DNA of 64,000 bases from the IMG/VR virus record IMGVR_UViG_3300044568_004391, positions 87,985-151,984 of that record; one strand, written 5' to 3'. Positions 4,555-63,866 of this stretch are shown here, piece by piece; the first letter of the stretch is position 1, and every line of letters starts with the position of its first letter. The notes under the pieces are model-generated. The model had not been told where the DNA came from and did no database searches. It saw nothing but the letters and a program-made list of their open reading frames with translations. The DNA comes from a virus. Both the position numbers and the translations under genes were made by a program.

Positions 4555-5158
4555 ATTATATTTATTTGTAAATAATAATTCTATGACACAACGACTAATA
4601 TTAACAGAAGAAGAAAAAAGAAACATCCAAAAGATGTATGGTATGATTAATGAACAACCTGATGACCAATTAAAAATGCTTCAAAATGAAGGTTATATTG
4701 ATGTAACAGATTCTGTTCATAAAGGCGAATATGTATTAGAAATTCCTGATGGTAAAAACTATAAAGTCAAAGGTGGTGGTTATCAATTTAAGCTTTTAAC
4801 AGATGATAATAAAGAAACAGGTTATCTTTTTTTATCTGAAAATGGAGTAAGAACACCTTCTATGGAGAAAGGTCCATTCTATGTTGAGGATAATGGAAAA
4901 ATGATTCGTCTTAATCAAGAATTTATAGGGATTTTAGGTCAAAATGGAAGGATTTTGTATAACCAAAAATTAAATCAAGTTAAAATTGAAAGATAAATTT
5001 TTATAAACTATATATTTAAGAACCTCTCCAATACGGGGAGGTTTTTTTGTTTTCAATTATATTTATTTGTAAACAATAATTCTATGGCACAACGACTAAT
5101 ATTAACAGAAGAAGAAAAGAGAAACATCCAAAAGATGTATGGTATGATTAATGAACAA
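4555..5158 (+). repeat. 103-bp direct repeat (4555-4657 and 5056-5158) covering the promoter motif plus the first 25 codons
   Basis: 3 mismatches by direct comparison; downstream coding sequences are unrelated. Confidence 0.9.
4583..4996 (+). CDS. E-leader protein (MTQRLILTEEEKRNIQKMYGMINEQ) with a variable domain
   Basis: ORF, TATTTAT at 4559, terminator downstream. Confidence 0.8.
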   Translation: MTQRLILTEEEKRNIQKMYGMINEQPDDQLKMLQNEGYIDVTDSVHKGEYVLEIPDGKNYKVKGGGYQFKLLTDDNKETGYLFLSENGVRTPSMEKGPFYVEDNGKMIRLNQEFIGILGQNGRILYNQKLNQVKIER

Positions 5159-5485
5159 GAAGAGACCAATTTCGATAAAAATTACTTTATGTCTAAAAAG
5201 ACGGGAACTGTAACCTTCGGTTCTCAAGCCATTCCATTAGAAGTTGACGGGATTAAGGTTTCTGACTACAAGACCCAATGGAAAAGAAATTTCAAAATAG
5301 AGAATATAGGGGGTAGAGGATTTCAACCTGGGGTTTTCACATGGACATACGGAGAGGAAGTTCCAACGGGAGTTATGGGTTATAGTACTGATTCTGATGT
5401 ACGTACATCAGAACCAGGTATATCAATAAAAGATAGTGCAAATAAAGAAGTTGGCACACTTATTTTTGAGTTACCTTGGGATTAA
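5084..5485 (+). CDS. E-leader protein with a different variable domain
   Basis: Same 25-aa leader as 4583. Confidence 0.8.
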   Translation: MAQRLILTEEEKRNIQKMYGMINEQEETNFDKNYFMSKKTGTVTFGSQAIPLEVDGIKVSDYKTQWKRNFKIENIGGRGFQPGVFTWTYGEEVPTGVMGYSTDSDVRTSEPGISIKDSANKEVGTLIFELPWD

Positions 5486-5575
5486 ACCCCCTCCCTTATT
5501 GGTGAGGGGTTTTTTGTTTTTTATTATATTTATATATAAAATAAAATAAAATAAAATAATTTTAAAATCAATAAA

Positions 5576-5986
5576 ATGAGAAAAGTTAGATTGACGGAAT
5601 CAGAATTGGTCCGTATCATAGAAAGAATTGTAAAAGAAGAATCCTTAACGGGAGGTAGATCAAAACCAGAATTCAAAGGTAGATTGGCTAAATCCAAAAA
5701 AGATTTTGGGATGGGATGGAGAGATGAATATGACAGCCCATCTGAAGGACCAGGTGAGAGATCAGGTTCGATTGTGAGTTATGAAGATTTTATGCGTTTC
5801 GCAGAAGACCACCCCGATTTGGCTGAGTTTTATTTTGGTTGGGCCGGTGATGAATCAGGTGAAGTTTTTGACAAATATGGTGGTGTAGATCTATTTAATC
5901 CTGAAGAAGATATGGCAAATCTTGAAGAGATGAAAAGAAAAGTCAGAGTTATGGAAAATAAACTCAAAAGGAAAATGGGAAGATAA
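5576..5986 (+). CDS. E-leader protein (MRKVRLTESELVRIIERIVKEE)
   Basis: ORF; TATTTAT at 5527. Confidence 0.8.
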   Translation: MRKVRLTESELVRIIERIVKEESLTGGRSKPEFKGRLAKSKKDFGMGWRDEYDSPSEGPGERSGSIVSYEDFMRFAEDHPDLAEFYFGWAGDESGEVFDKYGGVDLFNPEEDMANLEEMKRKVRVMENKLKRKMGR

Positions 5987-5990
5987 CAAA

Positions 5991-6398
5991 ATGAAAAAAG
6001 TTGTAAGATTAACGGAAAATGATTTGATTAGATTAACCAAGAGAGTTCTACTCGAATCGAAAGCTCAAGAGGCGGTAGACACCGCCTTTGAAAAATTTGA
6101 ATCAGGTCAAAAACCTCCAGCAGGTATGGTTCAAAATGTAAAAAAATGTTTGGAGAATACACCTCTCAGAAATATTGTTTTGGCTGGGGGAGATGTTGCT
6201 CAGTTAATTTTGAGTGTATTAGCATTGACGTTACTTGTCATGGTTGGTTGGGAAGCAGCATTGGTTGTGGCGGGGATTCATGGGGCACTTAGTATTTTAG
6301 AACACACATATAAAATAAAAGGTGTAAATGTTTTTGCAAAATCAGAAAAAGATATAAAATTTTTCGTTAATTGTTTACAATCAAAAGGGGTAATTTAA
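5991..6398 (+). CDS. E-leader protein with a hydrophobic hairpin
   Basis: MKKVVRLTENDLIRLTKRVLLES; long hydrophobic segment. Confidence 0.8.
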   Translation: MKKVVRLTENDLIRLTKRVLLESKAQEAVDTAFEKFESGQKPPAGMVQNVKKCLENTPLRNIVLAGGDVAQLILSVLALTLLVMVGWEAALVVAGIHGALSILEHTYKIKGVNVFAKSEKDIKFFVNCLQSKGVI

Positions 6399-6546
6399 TA
6401 ATCGATATTTCTTCTTTTATTGGAATAAAAAATAAAATTATTTCGGGGACCGAATTGGTCCCCTTTTTTTTGAAATCTAAAATTTCTGGAAAATTTTTTG
6501 ATATTATGGGGGTTTATTCTTATGTTTATAATATAGACCCAAAATT

Positions 6547-6975
6547 ATGAAACATATCATTTCCGTTATTTGTTTTATGATCTTCTCTCTTGTGGGAAGT
6601 TCACAAACCATCACAAAGGCTGCCATCTATAGATCCACCAATCAGAAGATTTCCATTTCAGAATTTGCTGGCGGTGCCATCATCTTCTATTATCAAAATC
6701 CTGACTATACTCACATCGTTGACCTCCTTCATTTCGGGGTTCAAAACAAGACCGAAGCTCTTGCTCTTATGGATGAATGTCTTCATGTTTTGAGTATGGA
6801 AAAAACCGGACAAGACCAACATATCTATCATAACTATAAATTCCATCAGATCATCCGGTATGGGTTCAATCAAAACTCCGTCATCATCGGCCGGTTATAT
6901 CTGAATGCCAAAACCATCGAGGAAATCAAACTTGCTCTTCTGAACTATTCTTATTCATCAATCAAAAATCAATAA
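6547..6975 (+). CDS. secreted hypothetical protein
   Basis: Signal peptide ending GSS-Q. Confidence 0.75.
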   Translation: MKHIISVICFMIFSLVGSSQTITKAAIYRSTNQKISISEFAGGAIIFYYQNPDYTHIVDLLHFGVQNKTEALALMDECLHVLSMEKTGQDQHIYHNYKFHQIIRYGFNQNSVIIGRLYLNAKTIEEIKLALLNYSYSSIKNQ

Positions 6976-6976
6976 T

Positions 6977-7585
6977 ATGAAAAAAGTTATTATCTTAATT
7001 TGTTTGGGACTTATTTCCTTGACCTCTTCTTCCCAACAATATATCGATATATTTCATTCAAGTCGCGGACCACATGTGATTAGCGCTTGTGAAGATGGAA
7101 AAGGTGGTTATGTTCATTTCTATCAAATGGAACCTATGGGGTTTTCAAGATCTACTCTTCTCTTTTTTGAAAATAAATCTGAAGACGATTCTCTGTCCGA
7201 TGATTTTTATGAGGTGATTGACTTAACAAAAAAAATGTTAAAAAGAAAATATGTTGAAAAAAGAAAGGAAACTCCCGACACAACTCTTGTCAATTTCACC
7301 ACAAATATGAAATGTGCCTTTCTTCATAAGGATGTTTGGTATTTTGATCGTGATGTAAACCTTTCTTATGAACTCACCAGAGAACCTTGGGGTATGGAAA
7401 TAAAGGTCGAAACTGATCGTCTCTGCGATGATAAAAACCCAAATATCTGCGTCCAAGGTGGAAGGTTTGTATTTTTGGATTATGAAGATTTTTATCTCTT
7501 CCCACTTTATTATTTGGATTGGGATGATGTGAATAGAATTCTAAACGAAAAAAAATCTCTTGAGCAATATTTTATTGATCAATAA
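6977..7585 (+). CDS. secreted hypothetical protein
   Basis: Signal peptide ending SSS-Q. Confidence 0.75.
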   Translation: MKKVIILICLGLISLTSSSQQYIDIFHSSRGPHVISACEDGKGGYVHFYQMEPMGFSRSTLLFFENKSEDDSLSDDFYEVIDLTKKMLKRKYVEKRKETPDTTLVNFTTNMKCAFLHKDVWYFDRDVNLSYELTREPWGMEIKVETDRLCDDKNPNICVQGGRFVFLDYEDFYLFPLYYLDWDDVNRILNEKKSLEQYFIDQ

Positions 7586-7615
7586 TTTTTATTGTTTCCC
7601 TATGTATTTATTAAT

Positions 7616-8044
7616 ATGGGAAAAAGAATTGTAATTTCAGAAAATGAGAAAGTAAAAATTCGTAAGTTATATGGATTGTCTGAAGGACTTGATTTTGAGC
7701 AGATCATGCTTGGGATCGGGTCCATCATTTTTTTAAGAAAGTTTTTTCAAGGACTTCGTTCTGATCCCAAATTCAAAGCATTATTTCTTCGTGATGAAGA
7801 TGTGGAACAGAATATCAAACACTTGGATAAGGTGATGGAAAGATATTTGAATGGTCTCGATGAGTATTACAGTGATATTGAAGAATATGACCGGGTGGAA
7901 ATTCGTGATATATATGAAAACGATATTAAACCTTTGCTCAGAGAAAAGAAACTTGTGGATATGGAAGATATTGTGAATTATTTGAGTTACAAACTAGATT
8001 ATCTTAACAAACAAAAGGAAAAGAAATTCTTTTCCAAAGATTGA
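7616..8044 (+). CDS. E-leader protein (MGKRIVISENEKVKIRKLYGLSE)
   Basis: Start reassigned; TATTTAT at 7605. Confidence 0.75.
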   Translation: MGKRIVISENEKVKIRKLYGLSEGLDFEQIMLGIGSIIFLRKFFQGLRSDPKFKALFLRDEDVEQNIKHLDKVMERYLNGLDEYYSDIEEYDRVEIRDIYENDIKPLLREKKLVDMEDIVNYLSYKLDYLNKQKEKKFFSKD

Positions 8045-8090: not shown

Positions 8091-8438
8091 ATGAAAAAAA
8101 TAGTTAGACTTACAGAATCCGATCTCGTTAAAATTATCGAACGAGTAATCGAAGAGGGAAAGACAGATAAAGGAGTTAAGGAAAAGGATGTTGACGTAAA
8201 AATTGAAACATTTCAAGATTCCATAAAAAACCATCTCAAATCAAAAGATAATGTTACGGTTAAAAAGGTGGGGGATGATTTTGAAATTCATTCTGATGGT
8301 GATCATATCGGTCAGGTTATGTTTAGGAAAGAAGGGATTACAGTAAAAAAAGTTGGAAACAAGTTTGGAAAGAAATTCGATTTCAACGAACTCGGGAATA
8401 TAAAAAAGGAAATTAATCGGATAATAAAAGAAGATTGA
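8091..8438 (+). CDS. E-leader protein (MKKIVRLTESDLVKIIERVIEE)
   Basis: ORF; TATTTAT at 8070; terminator downstream. Confidence 0.8.
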   Translation: MKKIVRLTESDLVKIIERVIEEGKTDKGVKEKDVDVKIETFQDSIKNHLKSKDNVTVKKVGDDFEIHSDGDHIGQVMFRKEGITVKKVGNKFGKKFDFNELGNIKKEINRIIKED

Positions 8439-8503: not shown

Positions 8504-8995
8504 ATGAAATACATCCTCCTTATTTTTGGTCTTTTGGTTTCATCACAGGTGATGAGCCAAACTTTCTACTCTGATTTCATCAGTGACCCAATCGATGGTG
8601 AACATGGTTTTGTTGGAAATGGAGATATTCAATTCCATCAATTTTCTGACACACCCGACTCTGTGGTGGTTTTCGGAATCACCGATTCATATTTCTGTGA
8701 AGATTCATTTTTGTATGTTGAATTTGCTGTTATGGTTAATGGTGTATGGAACAATCATGAACTTATGCTTTATCCATATAACACATCCAAATGGGCATAC
8801 CTCGATTTTCATATCAACGACCCACTTATTCAGGATCTCATTAGGGGATCCAAATATGTTTATAAGTATATCGATGCTCACTGTAGTATTGAACGAGGTG
8901 AGGGATCACTTGCTGGTGTGACCGCCGGATTTAAGAAAGCCGGTATTCCAATCAGATGGAAAGATGGTGTAAATCACGGGTTGAGTGCTTGGTGA
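8504..8995 (+). CDS. secreted hypothetical protein
   Basis: MKYILLIFGLLVSSQVMS-Q; TATATTTG at 8492-8499. Confidence 0.75.
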   Translation: MKYILLIFGLLVSSQVMSQTFYSDFISDPIDGEHGFVGNGDIQFHQFSDTPDSVVVFGITDSYFCEDSFLYVEFAVMVNGVWNNHELMLYPYNTSKWAYLDFHINDPLIQDLIRGSKYVYKYIDAHCSIERGEGSLAGVTAGFKKAGIPIRWKDGVNHGLSAW

Positions 8996-9072
8996 TAAAC
9001 AATTTAAATTTTGAACCCTCCCCCTTCAAGGAGGGTTTTTTTATTTTCGATATATTTATAAAGAAAAATAAG

Positions 9073-10488
9073 ATGTATATTTCTGAATCTGAAAAGAGGC
9101 ATATCTTAAAACTCTATAATCTATTGATTGAAGATACAAGACCTCTGCAAAAACTCAGAGAATGTAAAATTTCGAGTGACGGTCGATATATTGTCTATGA
9201 TAATCAAGTTTACCTAACATCTACGGGGGAACTTGCTCCAATATCTGAAGCGTGGTCATTAAGTGACATTCTTCACACAGGTGCGGACTTAGTATCTATG
9301 GGTATGGATTTTGTTATTCCTGGATCAGGTGCTGTAATCGACGTTCTCAATGCATTGAGTTATATAATCGAGGCTCAATTCGTTGATCCCGAAAAGAAAG
9401 ATTCTCTTTATATAATGGCGGCAATAACTTTCGGTTTCGTCATCCTTCCTGGTCCACTACAAGCCGTGGCGGTTCCGTTGAAAAGAGCGGTTAAGACAGG
9501 TGTTGGATTGGCAAGTAAAACCGTAGTTGCAGGGTTGAAAATAATTGGGAAATCATTGGATGTTTTACTCGTTAAGATTCCTGAGTATATTGGTCAGGCT
9601 CTAAAATCCAAAATGGGTAAAAGATTATTGGGAAAATGGGGTGATCGATTGAGTGGTTTTATAAGTGGGTTTACTTCAAGAATAAAGACTATATTAAGAT
9701 CAATTGGATCTGCACCAACTGCCACCAGGGCTGGTACTCAAACTGCAACTAGAAAATTACTTCAAACGCTCTCTAAAGCTCAACCACAATTTCTCAAAAA
9801 TTTCATGTCCAAATTACCTAAGATTAATAAGGGTAAGATGGTCTTAAGAAAGTTGGGTTTTGCACAAGGTCGATCCTATAGATACGTAGGTAAGTCAGGT
9901 AAAGCGTCAACCGCAACGATAGTGGGTATTACAGATTCTACGGTAAGAATTTCTTTTAAAACAGGATCCAAAGTTGCTGAATCTACAGTTCCTATAAATA
10001 CATTTATTTCACGAGCTGTCGGAGCTCCTTGGATAAGAAGGGGTGCAGGAGTCACAGTTCCATTTTTCATAAAGAGATTTGCGGATTGCTTGACTTCAGA
10101 TGGAAGTGTGGATGAAGCGGCGTTGGAAAAATTATCCGATATAAATCCTGATGTGACATCAGAAGAGTCATTGAATTACTTAAGGGAAGAAGTTGCAAGT
10201 TACGAAGGGGAAACTGGTCAATATACAGAAAACGAAAATGCCCAATTATTTCAAGAAGCTTTGAAAAAATTGGAATATGATCTTGGTAATTTTGGGCCCA
10301 ATAAGGATGGTATCGATGGTAAATTTGGACCAAAGACCAAATCGGCTTTGGAAAAATTCCAAACAAAAAACGGTTTAGAGGATTCTCTGGGTAAAATGGA
10401 CAGAATAACGGCAAATACTCTTGCCGATAGATTACCGGATGATGATGAAACTGCAATTAAATTAAGAAAATTAGTTTACCCGGATTAG
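9073..10488 (+). CDS. E-leader protein with a pre-toxin-TG-like hydrophobic domain and C-terminal peptidoglycan-binding domain
   Basis: HTGADLVSMGMDFVIPGSGAVIDVLNALSY; DGKFGPKTKSALEKFQ (PG_binding_1-like). Confidence 0.7.
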   Translation: MYISESEKRHILKLYNLLIEDTRPLQKLRECKISSDGRYIVYDNQVYLTSTGELAPISEAWSLSDILHTGADLVSMGMDFVIPGSGAVIDVLNALSYIIEAQFVDPEKKDSLYIMAAITFGFVILPGPLQAVAVPLKRAVKTGVGLASKTVVAGLKIIGKSLDVLLVKIPEYIGQALKSKMGKRLLGKWGDRLSGFISGFTSRIKTILRSIGSAPTATRAGTQTATRKLLQTLSKAQPQFLKNFMSKLPKINKGKMVLRKLGFAQGRSYRYVGKSGKASTATIVGITDSTVRISFKTGSKVAESTVPINTFISRAVGAPWIRRGAGVTVPFFIKRFADCLTSDGSVDEAALEKLSDINPDVTSEESLNYLREEVASYEGETGQYTENENAQLFQEALKKLEYDLGNFGPNKDGIDGKFGPKTKSALEKFQTKNGLEDSLGKMDRITANTLADRLPDDDETAIKLRKLVYPD

Positions 10489-12077: not shown

Positions 12078-13649
12078 TTACAAATTATCTCTCACTGATT
12101 CATTTATCTCTTTATTACTAGGGTTAGGATAAACATCAAAATCAAATTTTTCTTTATCGTAGAAGGTGGTTTCGTTTACTATATCCCAAAACGCACTCAT
12201 AATACTCAACCGATCATCAGAACGATGAAAATTCTGATCAAATAACTCTTGAACAAAATCGTCATCCAATAACGTGAGTGTTTGGGTTAAATCAACTTCC
12301 AACTTCAAACCCTCCTCTGTGAGTTCTATAACATGTCCATATTCACTAAGTGAATTTTTGAGTCGATCATATAATTTACCACTAACATCCGATTCTTCAG
12401 CATTTATTACCCCCCACCTAATTGCGTTTTCAATATCTCCATCATCGTACTCTTGAAATATTTCATATAAATTACCATCTTCTTCTTCACTGATGGTGAC
12501 ACCTTGTTTTTTAGCTTTTTCTATGAGTTTGGAACGAATAATCTGATCGGTTTTTGAATCTGATACATACTTAAAGAACCCTTCAATATCCACATGGCTT
12601 GAATCTCCCCAATATTCAAAATTTCCATTTACAATTTTTACAACGGGGTGTTCAAATGTGTATTCGTACTGTATTCTATTATCAGGCACCTTTATTCGTT
12701 TTTGAATTCTTATAGGATCCAAACCACCAACTAAGTACCATATATCCTCTAATTCAATATTCAAAACTTCGGACAATGGGAAGTCCTCTGGTTTTATGCG
12801 ACCTTCTTTAAATAATTTATATCTTGTATAACCATCTGTAAATAAATCCGGTCTATCTTCCAATAACTTTTTCATTTCTTCTTCAGTTAAATCGGATATT
12901 TTAAAATCACTTGACGATTGATATTCTCTCCCGAAATCTTTGATAAAATACTCACCATCTTCATCTGTGAGATAAAGAAGATCAATTATGTATTTGTGAT
13001 ATTTGCTTTGTGGTTTTGAGTTTTTCGGACCTTTCATCTGATAAATCACCCCGTCAGGACTAATTGCTGCCGTGAGGTGAGATTTATTAAGTTTGAATTT
13101 GGGGTTCAGAGTTTTTACTTCCCTCAAAGAATATATGTTCCCTGATGAACTTCTACCACAATGTCCCATCCTTTCACACTCTTCGGGCGAGTTACTTGTC
13201 TCTAAATCCGCCCAATAAAATCCATCTCCATTTTCATTTCTAAAATCCAATATGACAGGATTTTTTTCAACGTAATTTATATCACCCTGACCTACTTCAA
13301 GGGAGTCGTGCCATTCTCTTGATTTTTTATATAACTCATCGAAGGTGAGAATCATAAACGGTTTTACATTTCCATCCAAACCAACTCTGATCCAATCCAT
13401 TATAGATGTCATGGTATTCATAGCTGTGGATAAAGAAAGTGAATTAATTCTACTCAATGCTTCTTCTTTTGATTCACCTCTGTGTTTTTGAACTCTTTCT
13501 ATAAATTTATTTGCCAACCAAACCGACAAAGGCCCGGCAATTCTATCTACCATTTCCGCATTTTCTGCACTAAGTCCAACCTTATCTATTAGGATTTTTT
13601 TCTTGGATGCTTCTAAAATAATAGATGTTAAATTATCTAACAGTTTCAT
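12078..13649 (-). CDS. PcfJ-like domain protein with E-leader
   Basis: SREWH, EECERMGHC, IYSLR and QMKGPKN motifs. Confidence 0.55.
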   Translation of the reverse strand: MKLLDNLTSIILEASKKKILIDKVGLSAENAEMVDRIAGPLSVWLANKFIERVQKHRGESKEEALSRINSLSLSTAMNTMTSIMDWIRVGLDGNVKPFMILTFDELYKKSREWHDSLEVGQGDINYVEKNPVILDFRNENGDGFYWADLETSNSPEECERMGHCGRSSSGNIYSLREVKTLNPKFKLNKSHLTAAISPDGVIYQMKGPKNSKPQSKYHKYIIDLLYLTDEDGEYFIKDFGREYQSSSDFKISDLTEEEMKKLLEDRPDLFTDGYTRYKLFKEGRIKPEDFPLSEVLNIELEDIWYLVGGLDPIRIQKRIKVPDNRIQYEYTFEHPVVKIVNGNFEYWGDSSHVDIEGFFKYVSDSKTDQIIRSKLIEKAKKQGVTISEEEDGNLYEIFQEYDDGDIENAIRWGVINAEESDVSGKLYDRLKNSLSEYGHVIELTEEGLKLEVDLTQTLTLLDDDFVQELFDQNFHRSDDRLSIMSAFWDIVNETTFYDKEKFDFDVYPNPSNKEINESVRDNL

Positions 13650-13721
13650 AAAAAGACTTTTCAATAAATATATGAATTATGTTGATTTGGGGATAAAAGA
13701 TGAAAAAAACTTGTTTTGGTT

Positions 13722-13757: not shown

Positions 13758-14192
13758 ATGAATAAATTACTGATCCTATTGTCATTTTGTTTTATGATTG
13801 CCGCTTGTGCTTCCAAGATTGAAGATGGTAAGCTTTGTGTTAAAACCATTGATGGTTATGGTGAAGAGGCTGAAGTTGAATTTTGGGTTGAGGAAATCCT
13901 TGTAAATGAAATCCGTATCTCTGAAGATGTTCTCAAAACAATCGGAGAAACTGCTTGTCGTTATTCTGATTGGAATATTCAGGACAAGAACTATTTCTAC
14001 ATTGACAACAACCGAATCAATATGATTGTCTTCAACGAAGAGAAAAATAACATTCACGTTTGGACTCACGTTGTTAAAACCAACTCAGATGGTTCTCAGA
14101 GTTTCATTACAAACTCATTTGACTTTGATTTGAACGGAAATATTCTTTTGGATGATGACGGTGACATCAAAGTTTATTCGTATGAATACTAA
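13758..14192 (+). CDS. lipoprotein
   Basis: Signal peptide with IAA-C lipobox. Confidence 0.7.
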   Translation: MNKLLILLSFCFMIAACASKIEDGKLCVKTIDGYGEEAEVEFWVEEILVNEIRISEDVLKTIGETACRYSDWNIQDKNYFYIDNNRINMIVFNEEKNNIHVWTHVVKTNSDGSQSFITNSFDFDLNGNILLDDDGDIKVYSYEY

Positions 14193-15353: not shown

Positions 15354-15800
15354 ATGAAAAAGGTATTACATTTATCCCAAAACGAATTGAAGAATAAAAT
15401 CAAATCTTTAATTCAAGAACAAGAGGAAACAGAGTCAAACGACTTTCCAACCATAGTTTCACAACTTTTGTTTTCTCAAACTCAAGTTCATATATTCCAT
15501 CTTCAGACAAAATCCTTTGCGGAACACAATGCGTTACAGGATTACTATGATGGAATAGATGATTTGGTTGACACCTTAATAGAATCCTATCAGGGTGAGT
15601 TCGGCATTATTGAAAATTACAAATCATTTAAGGTAGAATCTTATCAAGACACAGATCAGGTTCTTGCTTATTTCGATATGATCCTAAATTTAGTAAAAAA
15701 GGGAAGGGAAACCATTGAATCAACTCATCTTCAAAACATCATGGATGAGATTATTACCCTTGTTACGAAAACAATGTATAAACTGAAGTTCTTGAAATGA
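15354..15800 (+). CDS. Dps/ferritin-like four-helix protein with E-leader
   Basis: HIFHLQT..FAEHNAL..YY....D.LIESYQG. Confidence 0.75.
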   Translation: MKKVLHLSQNELKNKIKSLIQEQEETESNDFPTIVSQLLFSQTQVHIFHLQTKSFAEHNALQDYYDGIDDLVDTLIESYQGEFGIIENYKSFKVESYQDTDQVLAYFDMILNLVKKGRETIESTHLQNIMDEIITLVTKTMYKLKFLK

Positions 15801-15898: not shown

Positions 15899-16318
15899 AT
15901 GAAATTCAAAAAAAAAGATATAAAATATTTTTTGGATCTCTATAAAAAGATGGGTGTACCCAAAGTGGATGCTGAAGACAATTTGAAAAAACTTATGAGG
16001 TGGGTGGAAAACCTACCAAAGAAAATTATTCTTTACAGAATCATATTTGTCAATTCCGAAGATGAAATTATCCGTGATATACCGGGTTCACACTACATGA
16101 TGGATAAAGAACATCTTATAGATACACATTATATTAACATTAAAAATTCACCTCAAGGTAGTGAGTGTTATCTTTTAACTGTAGAAGCAGACAAGAAGAT
16201 GATTGATCAATTCCAAACAATAGCGACAAATATTGTTTACCCAACTGAAAAAGAAATCACCCTAAAAAATAAAGGAGAGGGGATAAACTATATAGAACAC
16301 AAAAAAATCAATGAGTAA
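15899..16318 (+). CDS. putative ADP-ribosyltransferase-fold protein
   Basis: LYR ... GSHY ... EKE ordering resembles R-S-ExE. Confidence 0.4.
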   Translation: MKFKKKDIKYFLDLYKKMGVPKVDAEDNLKKLMRWVENLPKKIILYRIIFVNSEDEIIRDIPGSHYMMDKEHLIDTHYINIKNSPQGSECYLLTVEADKKMIDQFQTIATNIVYPTEKEITLKNKGEGINYIEHKKINE

Positions 16319-16661
16319 AAAATTAAATTTATCTGATAAGGAAATTCAGGAAATCAGAAAGAAACACGAAACCGAAAGAAACAACCACGAGTTTTTCAGT
16401 AAGAAGGTGTTTGAACCTAAGAAGAAACTTGATGAACAGTCGGTGGGATCGGTTGCGTCTTCAGGTGTATCCAAATCCAAAGGTGTTGAAGAGTCAGACG
16501 GAACCATAAGTTTCAGTGCTGAATCACCACAAAGAGAAATTGCCGCTAAAATAGCATTGAATAATGCAACTGTAGAAGGGTATAGATTACCATCAAAACC
16601 CAGTAAGGTTGAATCTACCGATAAAGGGTATAAAGTTACATATTATTTTAATAAGTTATGA
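16311..16661 (+). CDS. hypothetical protein with a leader-like N-terminus
   Basis: MSKKLNLSDKEIQEIRKKH...LDEQ. Confidence 0.7.
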   Translation: MSKKLNLSDKEIQEIRKKHETERNNHEFFSKKVFEPKKKLDEQSVGSVASSGVSKSKGVEESDGTISFSAESPQREIAAKIALNNATVEGYRLPSKPSKVESTDKGYKVTYYFNKL

Positions 16662-18662: not shown

Positions 18663-19070
18663 ATGAATTTGATTCAATCTGAAGTTGGAAAAAGTCCCAT
18701 TTTACCGGATCACGTTAAGAATTATTTGATTGATATTGACGGAACAATCACCGATGATGTTCCCAATGAAGAACCAGAAAGAATGGTGTCCTGTCTTCCC
18801 TTTGTGGATGCCGTTGAAACCATAAACAAATGGTTTGATGAAGGTCATATAATCACCTTTTTTACATCAAGAACTGAAGAACATAGAAAAATCACAGAAG
18901 AATGGTTGATAAAACACAACATCAATTACCATAATCTTCTTATGAATAAACCCAGAGGTGGAAACTATCATTGGATTGATAATCATATTGTTAGAGCAAC
19001 AAGATATGATGGTGTTTGGGGTGATTTGATAAAAAAGAAAGTTGACATAGAAGTTTTTGAAGAAAAATGA
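18663..19070 (+). CDS. HAD-superfamily phosphatase
   Basis: DIDGT motif, FTSR, KP, WIDN. Confidence 0.8.
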   Translation: MNLIQSEVGKSPILPDHVKNYLIDIDGTITDDVPNEEPERMVSCLPFVDAVETINKWFDEGHIITFFTSRTEEHRKITEEWLIKHNINYHNLLMNKPRGGNYHWIDNHIVRATRYDGVWGDLIKKKVDIEVFEEK

Positions 19071-21182: not shown

Positions 21183-21184
21183 AA

Positions 21185-23939: not shown

Positions 23940-24022
23940 ACAATATTACTATTTATATTCTAAAATTTTAGAATATAATGTTATGAATTACTTGGTTAAA
24001 TAAATTCTATAAGATAAAAAAA

Positions 24023-25755: not shown

Positions 25756-25874
25756 TTTCATTTTATGTTCGATAAAAAAACAAAATATAAAATAAATTAT
25801 TAAAATTTTATTTTTAATACTTCAAACGGTAATGTTTATAGTCTTAACAAAAAGTATCAATTGATCAGAAAAAA

Positions 25875-26480: not shown

Positions 26481-26500
26481 AAATTAAAGAATATAATTAA

Positions 26501-27037: not shown

Positions 27038-27046
27038 AATTACAAA

Positions 27047-31063: not shown

Positions 31064-31567
31064 ATGCCAAAAGTTATAAAACTTAACGAAAATGATTTAA
31101 GAAAAATTGTTGACAGGGTTATCACCGAATCCAACAAGCACGATGTTAAATGGACCAAAAACTTCAAAAAATATTTTAAACCCAACCAATACGAGCTCGA
31201 GGATAGGGATCAAAGAGAACTTCTTGAACTTATTGATGATATCAGAAGAGAACTCGACCGTTATGAGGATGGTGTTGTAACCATTAAACTCAAGGGTGGT
31301 GAATCCAAAACTCCAAACGTTGTTAATGTAAGAGGTGAAGATCAAGTTCACCCACCTGGTGCAATGGCAAAGAGAAGATGTCATTGGACTAAGAAGTTCC
31401 TTCAAAATCACGGAGGTGATCTTTTAAGGGGTGTTAATTATGTAACGGACAAGCCTTTTATCAACGGCCCCGATCATGATCCATCTAAGAGAATTAATTC
31501 TCCCGAATATTTGGACAATCAGTTTGTCGATCTTCTTGTTACCGTCAACGGTAATGTGAGAAGATAA
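31064..31567 (+). CDS. E-leader protein with a degenerate OmpA-like domain
   Basis: MPKVIKLNENDLRKIVDRVITES; F..NQY.L, I...GGES..PN and AKRR motifs. Confidence 0.6.
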   Translation: MPKVIKLNENDLRKIVDRVITESNKHDVKWTKNFKKYFKPNQYELEDRDQRELLELIDDIRRELDRYEDGVVTIKLKGGESKTPNVVNVRGEDQVHPPGAMAKRRCHWTKKFLQNHGGDLLRGVNYVTDKPFINGPDHDPSKRINSPEYLDNQFVDLLVTVNGNVRR

Positions 31568-42422: not shown

Positions 42423-43016
42423 ATGAATATTTTATCTGAAGCGGTCACTGACCAACCAGTTCGTCAAGTTGTTAAGGACATCATTAAGATGGTGAAAACT
42501 CAAGTGAGTAGAGAATATTATTTACCTGAAGAAGTTTCGGAAAATTATATCCCCGAATATAAATTCCGTCAATTACCATTTGGTTTTGATGTAATTCTTG
42601 ATTTTACTATTGAAGACGATATTGAATATTTTACAAATGCTGATCTGTTGGGTGATGACACCATCGGTGTTTTAATCAAGATAAATAAAAAGGATTATCC
42701 ATCGATAATATATACATTAATTTCGGATTTGAATGATCTTATTGCTCACGAGTTAGAACACATCTATCAGAACTATGGATATAGAGACGTGAGTTTGGAA
42801 AAATATCCTGAATATTCACAAACAACAGGAAAAGATTATTACAAACACCCCATTGAAGTTCCCGCTCAGATCAAAGGATTTCAAAGACAAGCTAGGGTCA
42901 CAGGAAAACCTATTGAGGAATTGATAAGAAATTATTTTGAAAAGAATAAAAAGAGATATGAACTATCGGACGAGGACGTGGAGGATATTATTTCTTATCT
43001 TCTTTCGAAGATTTAA
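42423..43016 (+). CDS. HExxH zincin-like protein
   Basis: AHELEH..Q and YY..P.E.PA. Confidence 0.55.
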   Translation: MNILSEAVTDQPVRQVVKDIIKMVKTQVSREYYLPEEVSENYIPEYKFRQLPFGFDVILDFTIEDDIEYFTNADLLGDDTIGVLIKINKKDYPSIIYTLISDLNDLIAHELEHIYQNYGYRDVSLEKYPEYSQTTGKDYYKHPIEVPAQIKGFQRQARVTGKPIEELIRNYFEKNKKRYELSDEDVEDIISYLLSKI

Positions 43017-43626
43017 GAATATTCGAAAAGAATTCTTTTACCAAATCTCCACCTTTTTCAAAAGAAAACCACAAAAGAATTGCTGCAAATATTTTGAAAA
43101 CATCGTTGGTTGACATCTCTTGTTCTTGAATCATATTTGTCAACACGGACATCAACGGAACAAGAGCGGAAAACTTGATTATATTGGAATAGTTTTTAAC
43201 TCCAATTCCAAATTTAGTAAAGAAAGATTCAATCTTTAAGTTTCTCTTTCCCACAAATTCTTCACCGGCTTTTAGTTCATCTTCAAGACCTTTTTCCACA
43301 ATTGAATCGTAAATACCTTTTTTATGGTCTCTTCTTTCAAAGAAAATTGAACTCAAAAGAGAAATAACCAAGAGTGTAATATCTTTTGAATCAAGTTCAG
43401 GATATCTAAATTCATAAAATTCTGTAAATATTTTGCTAAGTGGTGGGATGGCAGCCCCGAATGTCAAAAGAAACTTCAAATCAACACCTAATTCCACTTC
43501 CTTTTCTTTGATAAAGTCTTTTCCATCTTCATATAGATCCTCGAGATATTTTTTTACAGGGGTCACTTTGTTCTCTGACTCCAATATAATTTTTCTTACC
43601 TGAAGATTTTTGCTCTCTAATATCAT
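42988..43626 (-). CDS. membrane protein with E-leader
   Basis: MILES...IILESE; hydrophobic helices. Confidence 0.7.
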   Translation of the reverse strand: MILESKNLQVRKIILESENKVTPVKKYLEDLYEDGKDFIKEKEVELGVDLKFLLTFGAAIPPLSKIFTEFYEFRYPELDSKDITLLVISLLSSIFFERRDHKKGIYDSIVEKGLEDELKAGEEFVGKRNLKIESFFTKFGIGVKNYSNIIKFSALVPLMSVLTNMIQEQEMSTNDVFKIFAAILLWFSFEKGGDLVKEFFSNILKSSKEDKK

Positions 43627-43657
43627 TTGACAATATATTTATAAAATAAATATTACC

Positions 43658-44182
43658 ATGAGAGGATATTCAACAATGACCGATGAAGAAAGACAATCAA
43701 TTCTTTCTCAACACAAAACATTTTATAACGGATACCAAGTACAAAACGTTCCATCATCGTACCAACCTTTAGAGGAAAAAAGTTATGCCAACGATATGGG
43801 AGGTATAACCGTCAACAATAAAGGTGAGGTTTCTTCTTATAAGAACTATGGAATCAACGAAAATTATCAGTTAAATGAATATGATTTTGAAGATGAGGAA
43901 CCCGTTGACCTATACGACGATATGGAATATTCCGAACTTATGTCAAGCTTGGAAAAAATGCTTGATGAGGTGGGATATGAAGATGAAGATGAATTTGATT
44001 ATGTTGAATCTGAAGTTGCCGAAAAATACAAAATAGAAGAAAGAGTTTGTCCTACTTGTGGTCTTACAGAAGAAAAATGTGGGTGTTCCTACGAGAGCAA
44101 AGTCGATGAAGAAATCAAAGAATCTTTCGAAAATCAGAAGTCAAAGATTCATGAAATGATGAAAAGGATGAAGATTGGATGA
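43658..44182 (+). CDS. acidic protein with leader (MTDEERQSIL) and repeated x-x-E sites
   Basis: INE, LNE, IEE and IKE sites; CxxC; TATTTAT at 43636. Confidence 0.7.
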   Translation: MRGYSTMTDEERQSILSQHKTFYNGYQVQNVPSSYQPLEEKSYANDMGGITVNNKGEVSSYKNYGINENYQLNEYDFEDEEPVDLYDDMEYSELMSSLEKMLDEVGYEDEDEFDYVESEVAEKYKIEERVCPTCGLTEEKCGCSYESKVDEEIKESFENQKSKIHEMMKRMKIG

Positions 44183-44916
44183 AAAAACTTTTGCGTAAAA
44201 TATTGTTGGAGTTAGAAATACCGAATCCTGTTTATGGTGCATCGAATTCTACTACGATCAGAAGTCGTTATGGTATGAGAAAACATCCTGTAACAGGGAA
44301 AAATAAAATGCATTATGGTATTGATATACCTGTAAAATGTGGTACAAAATTAAAATCACCTGACAACGGAAGAATTACAGAGGCCGGTTTCAAAGAAGAT
44401 GGTTGTGGAGGTAGGATCAGAATTGATCACGGTATGTATTCGACCAGATATTGTCATTTGAAAGAAATTTTTGTAAAGACAGGTGATTGGGTAAATCAAA
44501 ATGATGAGATTGCCAGTACAGGTGGAGAAAAAAACACCAAAGGTGCTGGATTATCAACAGGTTGTCATTTACATATGGAAGTCAAAAGGAATGATCAAAA
44601 TATTGATCCAGAAACAGTTGTTGATTTGTCAAAAAATCCAAAAGAATTTGGAGATGAAAAATTGAAAAAGGGTTATAGGGGTTCTTCGATTGGGACTTTA
44701 CAGTGTTTCTTAAAACATTCTGGGGTGGATAGTAATTTAGAAAAAACAAATTTACTTGACGATGACACGATGCAAGCCATCAAGAAATTTCAGTCTGAAG
44801 TAGGAATGATCGAAACTGGTGAGGTCTCAAATGAGTTAATAATAGAAATTAGAGATTATATTAAGAAGTTAGACAAAGAAACTAAAAACAACATTAAAGA
44901 TTGTTATAGTAATTAA
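44179..44916 (+). CDS. M23 peptidoglycan endopeptidase with a PG-binding domain
   Basis: H.GID, TGCHLHME; TMQAIKKFQ. Confidence 0.88.
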   Translation: MKKLLRKILLELEIPNPVYGASNSTTIRSRYGMRKHPVTGKNKMHYGIDIPVKCGTKLKSPDNGRITEAGFKEDGCGGRIRIDHGMYSTRYCHLKEIFVKTGDWVNQNDEIASTGGEKNTKGAGLSTGCHLHMEVKRNDQNIDPETVVDLSKNPKEFGDEKLKKGYRGSSIGTLQCFLKHSGVDSNLEKTNLLDDDTMQAIKKFQSEVGMIETGEVSNELIIEIRDYIKKLDKETKNNIKDCYSN

Positions 44917-46485: not shown

Positions 46486-46755
46486 ATGAAAATTTTAAGA
46501 GAAGAAATTTCAAGAATAAAAGAACTAATGGATCTTGATGATGTTGAATTCAGTGGTGACACCGAATCAACAGAAGAGTTGGGTGAGCAGGAAGATGCTG
46601 CCGCAGCATCGACAACATCGACAAGTTCGGGTGGTGGAACACCATCAGTTCCCGTATGGGCAAGTGGAAGAAATTTTGGTAAAACATACATGAATGATCC
46701 CAAGTATAAATGGGAGTCAGGATTAACAAGAGGAAAAGCAAATAGTCTTTACTAA
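46486..46755 (+). CDS. E-leader protein (MKILREEISRIKELM) ending W.SGLTRGKAN
   Basis: ORF; TATTTAT at 46471. Confidence 0.75.
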   Translation: MKILREEISRIKELMDLDDVEFSGDTESTEELGEQEDAAAASTTSTSSGGGTPSVPVWASGRNFGKTYMNDPKYKWESGLTRGKANSLY

Positions 46756-48946: not shown

Positions 48947-50218
48947 ATGGTTCTGCGTGAAGATATATCAAGAATACATTTTTTGATAAATTACGATGTC
49001 AAGAAATCTATTCTGATTCAAGAAGAAGAAAACATTCTGAACTCAAAAAAATTTGAGGGTTTTTTAATCAATGAATCGAATGGATCAAGTATTCTTAAAT
49101 ACTTTGATTCATGGGATAATCATGACTGGTTGGCGTTCGGTGAACTTTCAACAGGATTGTTGGGTATGATTCCCTTCCCTCCCTTTGCTTTAGCTATGAA
49201 TGCAATATCAATAGGTTTCGGTGTTTCAAATGCCGCCTTATACGCATCTGAAGGTGATAATTATTCAGCATCGATTGCTCTTGCGTTGGCCTTGATCCCA
49301 GGACCATCAACTTATAAATTAGGTAAAGAAGTGTTCGGAAAGGGGGGAAAGGAAGCTTTGCAAAAAATTCTCATGAAAAAAGCAAAAGGTATTCCACTGA
49401 CCAAAGTCGAACAAGAACTACTTAAAAGAGGTATGACTCAAATTGGTAAGAATCCCAAACTTTTTAATTCTTTAGTTTCTTCATCTCTTAGACAAACAAT
49501 CAAAACGAGTTTGAGTAAAATTGGATTGGAAAAAACGTTCAGATTTCTTCTAAATACGGCAAATAGACCAATTTTCAAAAATATTTTATTTCCAATTTAC
49601 GGTGCAACTGTTGGTGTTGATTCTTTATATTACCTTTATACTTTGACCAAAAAACCTGAAGAGAGAAGAACACTCGAAGAAAAAAGAATGCTTTCTGACT
49701 TCAAACCTCTCGTTGACCTATTAAAAAATCCAACACAAATTTACAATATAATTTCATACCAAGTAAACCCAAAAAATATTGATGAAAATATAGATGTTTC
49801 TGAAAGTATTCAGGTTAGTGAAAAAACATTACAAGAAGGTAGAAATAAATTAAAAGCGATTCAACAAAGAGAACTCGGAGTTACGAAACCTAACCAAACA
49901 ACAGACCTTGAATCACCAAAAACTCAAACTAAGATTACTCCAACTATTACTACAAATGAAAAAACTTGGATAAATAATATTTCGAAAGGTATTTGGGTTT
50001 TGATGAAAGGTAGTCACACTTACAACACAAAGAAAGGTTATGAAGGTGTAGGTGATTTGATTGAGACCATTCAGGAAAAGTTGGGTATTATACCTACAGG
50101 TAAATTTGATCAAAAAACGGAAGATGCTGTAAAAAATTTCCAAAAAGAAAATGATCTAACTGTAGATGGAATCATAGGACCAAAAACAATAAGTAAATTA
50201 AATTTAATTGAAATATGA
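48947..50218 (+). CDS. E-leader protein with a pre-toxin-TG-like domain and C-terminal PG-binding domain
   Basis: GMIP...NAALYASEGDNYSASIALALALIPG; TEDAVKNFQKENDLTVDGIIGPKT. Confidence 0.75.
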   Translation: MVLREDISRIHFLINYDVKKSILIQEEENILNSKKFEGFLINESNGSSILKYFDSWDNHDWLAFGELSTGLLGMIPFPPFALAMNAISIGFGVSNAALYASEGDNYSASIALALALIPGPSTYKLGKEVFGKGGKEALQKILMKKAKGIPLTKVEQELLKRGMTQIGKNPKLFNSLVSSSLRQTIKTSLSKIGLEKTFRFLLNTANRPIFKNILFPIYGATVGVDSLYYLYTLTKKPEERRTLEEKRMLSDFKPLVDLLKNPTQIYNIISYQVNPKNIDENIDVSESIQVSEKTLQEGRNKLKAIQQRELGVTKPNQTTDLESPKTQTKITPTITTNEKTWINNISKGIWVLMKGSHTYNTKKGYEGVGDLIETIQEKLGIIPTGKFDQKTEDAVKNFQKENDLTVDGIIGPKTISKLNLIEI

Positions 50219-51291
50219 AAAAAAATATTCTGACGGAGGTAAGTAGAATCAAAGAATTGATGCCGTCTAATTTGATAATGGAACAAGCCTTTTATGGCAA
50301 GATATTAAAAGGAATGAATGTTTTGGTGGGTAATATTGATAATTTAGTTGCTCAATTCGGTGATGATGTTAGAAGACCTCTCGAAGAATTGGTGGCCTTG
50401 ACTGACGACACTGCTAAACTTTCGAAATTAGAAGACATAGCAACAAAACATCCAGAATTAGCTAAAGAACTAAGAACAAAAATTTTTTCTCGTTTAACAC
50501 TCCCGACTCAGACAGCAGTAAAAGACATTGTTGACCACATTAATGGGTATTCAAAATCTGATGTATTGTTAAGGTTGGACCAAGGTTTGGATGCATATTT
50601 CCAAAATGCAACTAAATCGGAAAAAGATTTGATCGAAAGATTAGTACGAGACTTAGATGACGATATAGACGATGCGATTGATGTTGCTAGAGGAGGTACA
50701 AGAGGAGGTGCTCCACCGGTAAGTAATACGGGATGGTGGAATAGATTTTTAGGGAATTTCAAACCAAGTAATATACAAGATAAAGTAAGAAGACAAATAC
50801 CTCTTTACGCAAACAAAACGGATGATGAAATTCTTAGAGAAATTAAAAGGTATGAAAATGGACTAATGAAAAATGCAAAAACTGTTGAGCAACTTGATGA
50901 AGTTTTTAGAGCGAAAGGCCTAGGTGTTTGGTGGCGAAAACAAACTTTTTGGACTAAATTAAGTTTTTTAATAGGTGTCCCTGTCTTTGGACCGGCGTTC
51001 ATACAACTTCTTGTTGGTTTGGGTGTTCTATATGTCAATAATTATGCAGGATTGTGGGATTTACCTATTTATAGATTTGTTACAACAGGAGGAGGACTTT
51101 TTATGGGACTTGAAGAGGCTAAAAATGCGGCACCTGAAGAAATCCAAAAATCAATTTATGAAAATAAAGAAAACGGTGAAATCTTCATTTATGTCAGTGA
51201 CACTGAAAAATACCCTGTTGTTTATGACTTTCCCACAAACAAATGGTGTTACGTTGCCGATGGACAAAGATATTTATTATCTGAATATTAA
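50215..51291 (+). CDS. E-leader helical protein with a TM segment
   Basis: MKKNILTEVSRIKELM; LSFLIGVPVFGPAFIQLLVGLGVLYV. Confidence 0.75.
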   Translation: MKKNILTEVSRIKELMPSNLIMEQAFYGKILKGMNVLVGNIDNLVAQFGDDVRRPLEELVALTDDTAKLSKLEDIATKHPELAKELRTKIFSRLTLPTQTAVKDIVDHINGYSKSDVLLRLDQGLDAYFQNATKSEKDLIERLVRDLDDDIDDAIDVARGGTRGGAPPVSNTGWWNRFLGNFKPSNIQDKVRRQIPLYANKTDDEILREIKRYENGLMKNAKTVEQLDEVFRAKGLGVWWRKQTFWTKLSFLIGVPVFGPAFIQLLVGLGVLYVNNYAGLWDLPIYRFVTTGGGLFMGLEEAKNAAPEEIQKSIYENKENGEIFIYVSDTEKYPVVYDFPTNKWCYVADGQRYLLSEY

Positions 51292-62155: not shown

Positions 62156-62173
62156 TTGTTTTAATTGTTGCGG

Positions 62174-62259
62174 TAGCCGGAGCGGGGATCGAACCCGCAC
62201 GGACCCTTCGGTCCATTTGATTTTAAGTCAAACATGTATACCAATTTCATCATCCGGCC
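62174..62259 (-). tRNA. tRNA-Leu(UAA)
   Basis: TTTGA-CTTAAAA-TCAAA; normal long variable arm. Confidence 0.92.
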
Positions 62260-62368
62260 ATGATTATTCCGATATGTCAAAGAACACCCAAAACATACAA
62301 CAAATCTTCTGAAGTTTCAACCCCTCCCTCTATTCTATATTTTTGGGGAGGGGAGAGGAGCCTACTAT

Positions 62369-62689
62369 TTAGTAGGCGTCCATCTCATCAATCACGTAAG
62401 CCACGTTTACGTTTACCTTGTCTTCGTGGTTTCGGATGTCCACAATGAACCCACCCATCCCGAAGTTGGTCACTCCTTCCTGTTCGTAGGAAGTGAATGC
62501 TTGGTTCATCACGACGGTGGTATAGTCCTTGAGTGTTTGGACGTTGAAAGAGTCGGGTGACACTTCCAACCAAGAAGTATACATCGCCTCACGGTTCAGA
62601 GCCTTTACGACCTTCGCTACGGTTTCGTAGTCGAAGTTGTTGGTTACACGGCCAATCCGGTTTTGGGGGTTGGAGATGACGTTTTTCAT
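62369..62689 (-). CDS. hypothetical, probably early protein
   Basis: Promoter TTTG-N20-TACCTTTG at 62711-62742; higher GC than neighbours. Confidence 0.75.
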   Translation of the reverse strand: MKNVISNPQNRIGRVTNNFDYETVAKVVKALNREAMYTSWLEVSPDSFNVQTLKDYTTVVMNQAFTSYEQEGVTNFGMGGFIVDIRNHEDKVNVNVAYVIDEMDAY

Positions 62690-62793
62690 GGTGTGATTGT
62701 TTTAACACCACAAAGGTATGGCAGGAGATTGATCTTTCCAAATCTTGATGTGACTTTTTTCGATCTACGTAAATTAATCTTTAACTGAAGGTA

Positions 62794-63768
62794 TTAATAT
62801 TCTTCAGGTTTTTCAAAATGTATCACTTCACTACCTCCAGGACCTACTTCATAGTTTTTATTAGGGAAAACATATACCTTACCACCTATTTTTGCATAAA
62901 CAATATAATCAATACTTTTACTCTTATAGTCGTTCTTCATACCATAAGTTTTAACAAAATATTTACCGTCTTCTACGAGGAGTTTAGATAAAGGTTTTAT
63001 TTGAAAACTCTGACCCCCAATAATCATGTCTATTGATTTGTGTCGGTCAATTATAGAACCAGGAGGAAACAACTCAACATTACCTGGTATATGATTAGAA
63101 ATTACTTCTGAGGCGTATACCTCAGTATTATAACCATTTTCTATTGACCTCCATTGGATATCCAACAACTCTTTCATAAAATCTTTGTCGTTTTTAAATA
63201 CATCCACTAACCATTCCTCTAAATCTCCGTTACCTTCATTATTCCATTTTTGTGATATTTTTCTTTGTACTTCTTTTTTTGTATCAAAATAATTCATAAT
63301 TGACCATGACTCACCCTTACCCGTTCTCTCACCTATTGTATTTATATCTCTAATACCTGCGCTATATATTTCATCTTGTTCTTTCCAATTATTTGGAAAC
63401 GCCTTTTTTAACGCACTCCTAATTAAAGTTGATTTTACTTCTCCACTATCCTTACTACCGAACAAAATTTTACGAATATCAGGTTTTATTTCTTCAAGTT
63501 TCCAATAGTCAACGTAACCCGATTCTCCATTTTTCGTAAAATTAAAATCTGTAGGAGTAATACCTGTCAACTTAATATTATTTCCAATCAAATTTATATA
63601 TGTATTTTTACCATGTGAATATTGGCCTTCTTCGGTTTTTAAGTCGTTGAAGTATACCCTCCACGGAGCGTATGTTGGTTTATAAGCCCTCATATAACTA
63701 AAACTAAAGGTTACAGGACCGTCACCTGAAGTTAATTCTTTTAGAATTTTGCGTATTTGCTCTCTCAC
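62794..63768 (-). CDS. E-leader protein with a possible C-terminal PD-(D/E)xK-like nuclease domain
   Basis: MREQIRKILKE; E...IDM......QIK. Confidence 0.45.
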   Translation of the reverse strand: MREQIRKILKELTSGDGPVTFSFSYMRAYKPTYAPWRVYFNDLKTEEGQYSHGKNTYINLIGNNIKLTGITPTDFNFTKNGESGYVDYWKLEEIKPDIRKILFGSKDSGEVKSTLIRSALKKAFPNNWKEQDEIYSAGIRDINTIGERTGKGESWSIMNYFDTKKEVQRKISQKWNNEGNGDLEEWLVDVFKNDKDFMKELLDIQWRSIENGYNTEVYASEVISNHIPGNVELFPPGSIIDRHKSIDMIIGGQSFQIKPLSKLLVEDGKYFVKTYGMKNDYKSKSIDYIVYAKIGGKVYVFPNKNYEVGPGGSEVIHFEKPEEY

Positions 63769-63866
63769 GTAAATAAATATTCCTAAATTAAGAAATGTTT
63801 AATCAAACCTTTTATCCCACAAACTAAAGATTTGTGGGTTTTTCGGTGGAGTTAATAAAACAAATG

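Follow-up and report, generated by a model that had tools for sequence, protein, structure and literature searches.

Portable N-terminal leader peptides on unrelated proteins of an uncultured T4-like jumbo phage, a candidate multi-class analogue of the T4 capsid targeting sequence

The internal-protein loci of T-even phages are polymorphic, with variable genes placed behind a common late promoter and a 5' end that codes for a capsid targeting sequence (CTS). The T4 internal proteins have a targeting sequence of 10-19 residues at the N-terminus, and the prohead protease gp21, which cuts after L/I-X-E, itself has L-I-E at residue 9 (PMC9026906). T4 propeptides of 10-19 residues that are cut after this motif suffice to package foreign proteins (PMC9026906, PMC3012670), 'CTS-like sequences' are also found in T2 and T6, and a variety of proteins may be loaded by T4-like phages by means of the CTS (PMC9026906). 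In this study, we analysed a window of 64,000 nucleotides, bases 87,985-151,984 at the 3' end of one 151,984-bp virus contig of IMG/VR (IMGVR_UViG_3300044568_004391), in which about 18 genes, together with others upstream on the contig, open with one of three types of short leader on otherwise unrelated bodies. We propose, with a probability of about 0.6, that these leaders are capsid-targeting propeptides of a T4-like jumbo phage, forming a greatly expanded, multi-class analogue of the T4 CTS with gp21-type processing; the head loading, clipping and co-injection of diverse effectors suggested by a first-pass annotation of the window would then apply to the leader-bearing proteins by analogy with T4.

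Three leader classes and the genes that carry them

Style 1 is a leader of 22 residues (MKKIVRLTESDLxRIVKRVIxE), style 2 is of the LTExEK type and style 3 of the LxEEISRIK type, and short N-termini resembling IKKILKE (44179, 13649, 43626 and 63768) are weaker members. Residues 2-29 of 186 proteins were compared all against all, and the pairs scoring at least 35 numbered 63 for N-termini, 21 for internal segments, 29 for C-termini and 9 for shuffled N-termini. Among pairs scoring at least 33, 64 of 85 link proteins with unrelated bodies, in agreement with the first-pass claim that unrelated proteins share leaders. Ordinary signal peptides and lipoprotein signals clustered separately in the same comparison and served as a positive control for portable N-termini. 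Two other readings were dropped: that of a paralogous family, since the bodies are unrelated, and that of a Sec or lipoprotein signal, since the leaders are charged and the real signal peptides form a cluster of their own. We also observed that ordinary signal peptides and lipoprotein signals are numerous in the window (6547-7585, 8504-8995, 13758-14192, 17866-18609 and 31632-37194), a count unusual for a phage.

Four leader-bearing relatives (G002, G003, G004 and G005; 89-100% complete, 261-326 kb) were compared, of which G003 was analysed whole. The first-pass annotation had called for a profile hidden Markov model (HMM) of the leaders to be run on the genome and its relatives. A style-1 HMM used in a six-frame scan of the studied genome and G003 gave 14 matches with E < 1e-3, of which 13 start at the initiator Met or immediately behind it (12 of them at model position 1), while the fourteenth is an internal copy in a 398-aa late protein. 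In each of the four relatives, 8-11 style-1 leaders were detected by HMM. The style-2 and style-3 HMMs, seeded from the studied genome and G003 with one G002 sequence added to style 2, gave between 4 and 7 matches apiece in G002, G004 and G005, and almost all of these begin within the first few model positions. The best HMM E-values were 1e-15 per genome and 2e-20 against 1.84e9 proteins. Five regular expressions for the leader classes, which were defined after the data had been seen and are somewhat circular, matched 58 N-termini and 7 internal segments, where about 6 N-terminal matches would be expected from length alone and shuffled proteins gave about 2 in total; per class, 6-18 N-terminal matches were observed versus about 0-1 in shuffled controls. 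The helical hydrophobic moment is higher in the leaders than in other N-termini (median 0.49 vs 0.40, p = 3e-7).

It might be argued that such similarity arises by chance from low-complexity N-termini rich in Lys, Ile, Leu and Glu in an AT-rich genome; the short IKKILKE-like forms are indeed hard to separate from ordinary N-terminal helices, and single-linkage clustering of the N-termini of two genomes at a loose threshold chained 219 proteins and was abandoned. For styles 1-3 chance similarity is refuted by the shuffled controls and the HMM E-values, and their portable leaders are confirmed as real; as a general explanation chance is hardly credible, though it may account for individual short members. 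The three styles named in the first-pass annotation are upheld by HMM, whereas its short versions, captured solely by regular expressions composed after they had been seen, are plausible but weak as leaders.

The style-1 leader is also widespread in databases. Scanned with the 8091 protein, IMG/VR yielded 166 stretches. Many of these align at residues 1-22 or 1-28 only, with 65-91% identity, before entirely different bodies, and in most cases the sequence TATATTTAT lies within about 25 nt of the ATG. When the style-1 profile was run against 1.84 billion representative proteins, 8,257 clusters matched at E <= 1e-3 and 598 at E <= 1e-10. Among the best 150 library matches, 128 begin at residue 1 and another 7 no later than residue 4; 9 begin at residues 11-34, the one inspected reflecting a start codon called too far upstream, and the remaining 6 are second copies inside longer proteins. 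One relative has a fusion of the 8091 ortholog with another leader-body unit. A word-indexed homolog search on the leader region returned 10 orthologs only, a related-locus search found none with a virion protein or a style-2 protein and orthologs only with a style-3 protein, and a full-text literature search on the motif and on Flavobacterium jumbo-phage propeptides found nothing relevant.

The leader genes of the window are given below. Every N-terminus listed by the first-pass annotation is present at its place, and its coordinates are all real, except that three belong to minus-strand genes and have to be read accordingly: 62794 is a 3' end (the N-terminus lies at 63768, with GTG), and 13649 and 43626 are N-terminal ends.

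4583..4996, plus strand: style-2 leader gene; leader codons 1-24 (4583-4654), ending I-N-E; TATATTTAT at 4557-4565
5084..5485, plus strand: style-2 leader gene; leader 5084-5155, ending I-N-E; body unrelated to that of 4583; TATATTTAT at 5058-5066
5576..5986, plus strand: style-1 leader gene; leader 5576-5638, ending V-K-E; HMM E = 4.5e-9 from Met1; TATATTTAT at 5525-5533
5991..6398, plus strand: style-1 leader gene, second of the 5576 operon; leader 5991-6056, ending L-L-E; HMM E = 1.8e-12 from Met1
7616..8044, plus strand: style-2 leader gene; leader 7616-7684, ending L-S-E; hydrophobic stretch downstream; TATTTAT begins 11 nt ahead of the ATG
8091..8438, plus strand: style-1 leader gene with a small basic body; leader 8091-8156, ending I-E-E; HMM E = 1.8e-14
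9073..10488, plus strand: style-2 leader gene; leader 9073-9132, ending L-I-E; C-terminal PG_binding_1 (E = 3e-10); the start is an internal ATG of the open reading frame (ORF) 8956-10488, directly after TATATTTAT (9051-9059)
12078..13649, minus strand: short leader-like N-terminus, weak member; 13611-13649, ending I-L-E; TATATTTAT at 13664-13672; no family match
15354..15800, plus strand: leader-like 24-residue extension on a Dps-like/DUF5856 body, ending I-Q-E; proposed earlier as a weaker style-1 member, to which the style-1 HMM gives only E = 2.8
16311..16661, plus strand: weak style-2 member, as proposed earlier; no clear leader-end [LI]xE; was an HMM seed sequence
31064..31567, plus strand: style-1 leader gene; leader 31064-31129, ending I-T-E; HMM E = 7e-12; TATATTTAT at 31039-31047
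42988..43626, minus strand: short leader-like N-terminus, weak member; two I-L-E sites within 43579-43626; TATTTAT upstream
43658..44182, plus strand: style-2 leader gene; E = 4e-13, the top style-2 HMM score of the genome; TATATTTAT at 43634-43642
44179..44916, plus strand: short leader-like N-terminus (weak assignment) on an M23 peptidase; Peptidase_M23 E = 1e-21, PG_binding_1 E = 1e-6
46486..46755, plus strand: style-3 leader gene, 89 aa; E = 9e-13; directly upstream of the 701-aa gene 46755-48860
48947..50218, plus strand: style-3 leader gene; leader through residue 26, ending I-Q-E; C-terminal PG_binding_1 (E = 3e-12)
50215..51291, plus strand: style-3 leader gene; leader 50215-50283, ending I-M-E; E = 7e-11
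62794..63768, minus strand: short leader-like N-terminus, weak member; GTG start at 63768, ending L-K-E; TATTTAT about 12 nt upstream

Further common N-termini were observed beside these classes. In a close relative (L007:4457-6437) four tandem genes come after the 8091 ortholog, all with an N-terminus of the MKIIITE.Q type, a candidate for a further leader class (class E). On the minus strand of the window, small tandem paralog families of four genes (661-2144) and two genes (2286-2982) have common N-termini of their own, of the KIDKLV..L and TERQLNTLV types, together with TATTTAT promoters.

Late promoter, cleavage motif and prohead protease

The portal, protease, scaffold, sheath and tube genes of G003, like many other structural genes there, are preceded by TATTTAT at a distance of 11-42 nt, so the motif probably marks late genes. 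TATATTTAT occurs 17 times in the window versus 2.5 expected. The first-pass observation that leaders follow TATTTAT is borne out, the motif being upstream of 33 of 53 leader genes (62%) compared with 110 of the 575 other genes (odds ratio 7, p = 1e-10), and several of the promoter-less leader genes are second genes of leader operons. The leader genes are, judging by their promoter motif, probably late genes. The spacing of the motif was also observed to vary: many late genes have TATTTAT 11-13 nt before the ATG (for example 7605-7615, and many in G003), and a second group has it at 20-26 nt. If TATTTAT is a -10-like element, the 11-13-nt group would give nearly leaderless late mRNAs.

The studied virus is an uncultured T4-like jumbo phage. 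The contig has a GC content of about 33% and 226 genes in a simple ORF-based gene call, and its CheckV completeness is 52%, from which a full genome of about 290 kb is likely. G003 homologs were found for 80 of the 226 proteins, largely in the same order and with a median identity of 42%, and a megablast search of GenBank phages with 12 kb of the window gave no match. The capsid protein of G003 matches 2,588 T4-like records, the closest cultured phage by this protein being Flavobacterium phage immuto (41% identity). In G003 the head genes are arranged as in T4: the portal gene comes first, then two small core-position genes, the protease gene, a 69-aa gene and the genes for an acidic scaffold-like protein and a gp23-type capsid protein. 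The 69-aa gene (G003:67687-67896) is conserved between protease and scaffold, with orthologs in G002, G004 and G005, its product ends in V-I-E or V-I-D, and it may be a small prohead core component. A long gene block of the window (19067-30675) resembles sugar-nucleotide/glycan biosynthesis by its Rossmann-type N-termini and by BLAST, with G003 homologs at 84-97 kb.

Each of G002-G005 has one Peptidase_S77 (T4 gp21-type) gene above the Pfam cut-off, and no HK97-type (S78) protease was found in these four genomes. When the proteases of the relatives are aligned with T4 gp21, H85, S140 and the N-terminal L7-x-E9 (L-I-E) are invariant. Likewise, E65 of T4 gp23, the residue after which gp23 is cut in T4, is invariant and aligns with the Glu of an I-N-E that is conserved in the capsid proteins of the relatives. 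A gene adjoining the capsid gene has three different short N-termini in G002, G003 and G005, each ending in [LI]-x-E before a stretch rich in Ser, Thr and Gly.

The claim that the leaders end in [ILMV]-x-E holds in the form that styles 1-3 end in [LIV]-x-E, with a few poor fits (16311 and 46486). In an enrichment test that does not depend on how leaders are defined, 79 of 135 proteins behind TATTTAT had an [LI]xE whose Glu lies at residues 3-27, compared with 141 of 406 other proteins (odds ratio 2.65, p = 1.7e-6). Late and other proteins did not differ in [LI]xE at residues 30-55 (p = 0.67), and [LI]xD, [LI]xK and [AG]xE showed no comparable enrichment in late N-termini. Leaders and [LI]xE are thus both enriched in TATTTAT genes. 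Style-1 leaders hold two sites, L-T-E and [VI]-[IL]-x-E, which recall the suggestion that extra propeptide sites help to clear fragments from the head (PMC5694885). The testable genomic predictions of the capsid-targeting, or propeptide, idea all came out as expected.

Cassettes, cargo and competing explanations

Among 38 distinct style-1 leader DNAs, invariant or nearly invariant residues use up to five synonymous codons each, and third-position identity in the conserved codons is 64%. Such variation in synonymous codons at conserved residues indicates selection on the peptide, and the reading of the leaders as an RNA- or DNA-level signal was dropped on this ground. Within the studied genome, the promoter-plus-leader blocks 4555-4657 and 5056-5158 are near-identical DNA, with the identity ending right after the leader, and represent a recent DNA-level cassette duplication. 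These blocks, together with the differing neighbourhoods in which orthologous cargo genes lie among the relatives, could also suggest that the promoter-plus-leader block is mainly a recombination handle and that its peptide has a generic role, in translation start or solubility; a comparable recombination role has reportedly been proposed for the T-even internal-protein loci. The conservation of the peptide across genomes while synonymous codons vary widely, and the persistence of the motif over thousands of clusters, make this quite unlikely as the main explanation. A recombination handle can coexist with capsid targeting, and the block probably also shuffles cargo genes in this way alongside targeting.

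The leaders themselves appear to be exchanged. One conserved gene, which adjoins the head/baseplate module, carries a style-1 leader in both G002 and G005 and a short IRKVIKE-type leader in G003, the homologous body beginning a few residues past the leader Glu, which suggests that leader classes may be functionally interchangeable. The Dps-like body at 15354 has its 24-residue extension, and the G003 ortholog is without it.

The bodies behind the leaders are diverse. PG_binding_1 is present on 9073, 44179 and 48947 and Peptidase_M23 on 44179, while the body of 15354 matches DUF5856 (E = 5e-23 over residues 49-144) and is spanned at residues 25-147 by phrog_858. From the domains attributed to the bodies at first pass, Dps-like and M23 are retained, whereas OmpA-like, PcfJ-like, pre-toxin-TG-like and nuclease have no support from Pfam or PHROG. 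The body of 8091 gives a weak HU-like match (Pfam Bac_DNA_binding, E = 0.0025, below the cut-off), and in its AF2 model (mean pLDDT 58.9) the leader forms a helix at residues 9-22 with low confidence. For the bodies of 31064 and 5576, ESM Atlas searches gave matches at chance level or none at all. Outside the window, leader bodies include a lysozyme and a leucine-rich repeat (LRR) family, and those of G003 include PPK2, M23 and lysozyme. Four LRR/Receptor-L-domain paralogs at G000:67211-67756 and 80287-82264, outside the window, were observed to have a common short N-terminus of the IKKILKEE type.

The nature of the cargo raises the question of whether the leader might instead be a docking helix for another late process, such as incorporation into tail or baseplate, binding of an assembly chaperone or oligomerisation, and not be removed by the head protease. 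Peptidoglycan-acting enzymes of myoviruses usually sit on the tail or baseplate, and several of the bodies act on peptidoglycan. In addition, the style-3 genes flank the 701-aa gene 46755-48860, which matches G003 126569-128563 and is a paralog of the gene after the G003 tail tube gene, and internal copies of the motif exist. This explanation leaves the [LI]xE at the end of all leader classes, and the stop of its enrichment at residue 28, without a cause, and it sits poorly with bodies as diverse as Dps-like, PPK2, LRR and HU-like and with a leader length and position that match the T4 capsid targeting sequence, so we consider it unlikely.

Similarly, the raised hydrophobic moment and the peptidoglycan hydrolases among the cargo could point to a cationic amphipathic helix for the cytoplasmic membrane or for membrane activity, for example one that helps wall enzymes to reach the wall. 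Most of the cargo has no link to the envelope, and the truly secreted proteins of the phage use ordinary signal peptides. Moreover, the likely endolysins are without a leader: the Amidase_2 protein 41568-42419, a probable endolysin, has a late promoter and no leader, and a small lysozyme-like late gene of G003, judged by its N-terminal sequence only, likewise seems to lack one. A membrane role for the leaders therefore seems very unlikely.

Several observations weigh against capsid targeting itself. The leader motif is not a strictly N-terminal signal, as there are internal and tandem copies: a conserved 398-aa late protein outside the window (G000:32934-34130), which has a leader-like N-terminus and no family match, also holds an internal style-1-like copy at about residues 171-189 that is kept in its G003 ortholog, and proteins retrieved from the library have two or three leader copies separating unrelated modules. 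Peptidoglycan-acting bodies (M23, lysozyme and PG_binding_1) are among the cargo, and enzymes of this kind are not known from the head contents of T4, whose handful of cargo species is also far exceeded by the dozens per genome found here. [LI]xE is a common tripeptide, which about 35% of non-late proteins have within residues 1-28. The studied contig, which is 52% complete, yielded no capsid, scaffold or protease gene, the style-1 leader was not found in Flavobacterium phage immuto, and tblastn of the consensus leader against GenBank phages gave no match.

If the leaders are nonetheless capsid-targeting propeptides, a TATTTAT-type late promoter would drive, late in infection, many small cassettes, each consisting of a 13-26-residue amphipathic N-terminal helix and an unrelated body. 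The helix would dock the protein onto the scaffolding core of the assembling prohead, and the gp21-type prohead protease would cut after the leader-end [L/I]-x-E, perhaps also after the inner L-T-E, so freeing the body within the head, from which it would exit together with the DNA when the phage next infects a cell; the steps of core docking, cleavage, packaging and ejection are here inferred by analogy. A broader proposal, for which we see about even odds, is that a freshwater clade of uncultured T4-like jumbo phages, probably on Bacteroidota, loads and injects dozens of shuffled effectors (wall hydrolases, polyphosphate kinase, Dps-like, HU-like, LRR and many small proteins) by means of a small alphabet of interchangeable address peptides, that the 22-residue tag marks more than 8,000 protein families, and that tandem copies are protease-cut joints of cargo polyproteins. 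Were capsid targeting correct, a simple sequence signature would reveal the injected proteome of a large uncultured jumbo-phage group, the 22-residue tag serving as a sequence-readable catalogue of injected phage proteins, and thousands of 'hypothetical' proteins would become candidates for host takeover or anti-defence. The principle of the T4 packaging tag would also prove to extend to dozens of cargo species and more than one class of tag, and new, longer tags would become available for engineering protein delivery in phage heads.

Comparison with described systems

The T-even internal-protein loci resemble the present genes in having a promoter-plus-leader cassette before swappable bodies, as seen here in 4555-4657 and 5056-5158, but the cassettes described here extend over many loci and a whole uncultured jumbo-phage clade. 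Encapsulin cargo-loading peptides also direct unrelated cargo, by a short portable peptide, into an HK97-fold shell; unlike the leaders, they are usually C-terminal and uncleaved, and their shell is a cellular nanocompartment and not a virion. The giant phages phiKZ, 201phi2-1 and SPN3US likewise have many head-internal proteins that are processed after Glu by a gp21-related protease, and additional cleavage sites within their propeptides have been proposed (PMC5694885). Their propeptides, however, are often longer than 100 residues, have the motif A/S/G-x-E, belong to paralog families and are proven by mass spectrometry, and no common portable tag is present among them.

The closest parallel is the CTS of T4, which is carried by IPI, IPII, IPIII and Alt and removed by gp21. 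Both systems place a short N-terminal propeptide with an L/I-x-E end on unrelated proteins of late genes, and the leader-bearing relatives encode a gp21-family protease and keep the gp23 and gp21 sites. The two differ in that the present leaders are about 20-26 residues long vs 10-19 in T4, fall into at least three distinct conserved classes vs one, and have dozens of carriers per genome vs about four; the cargo here includes peptidoglycan hydrolases, PPK2, Dps-like and LRR proteins, and there are internal and tandem copies. While targeting and cleavage are known for T4, the present system is known from genes alone, and since the leader has no match in GenBank phages it would be at most analogous, and not homologous, to the T4 CTS. 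Taken as such an analogue, the leader system is most likely a much enlarged version of the capsid-loading tag of T4.

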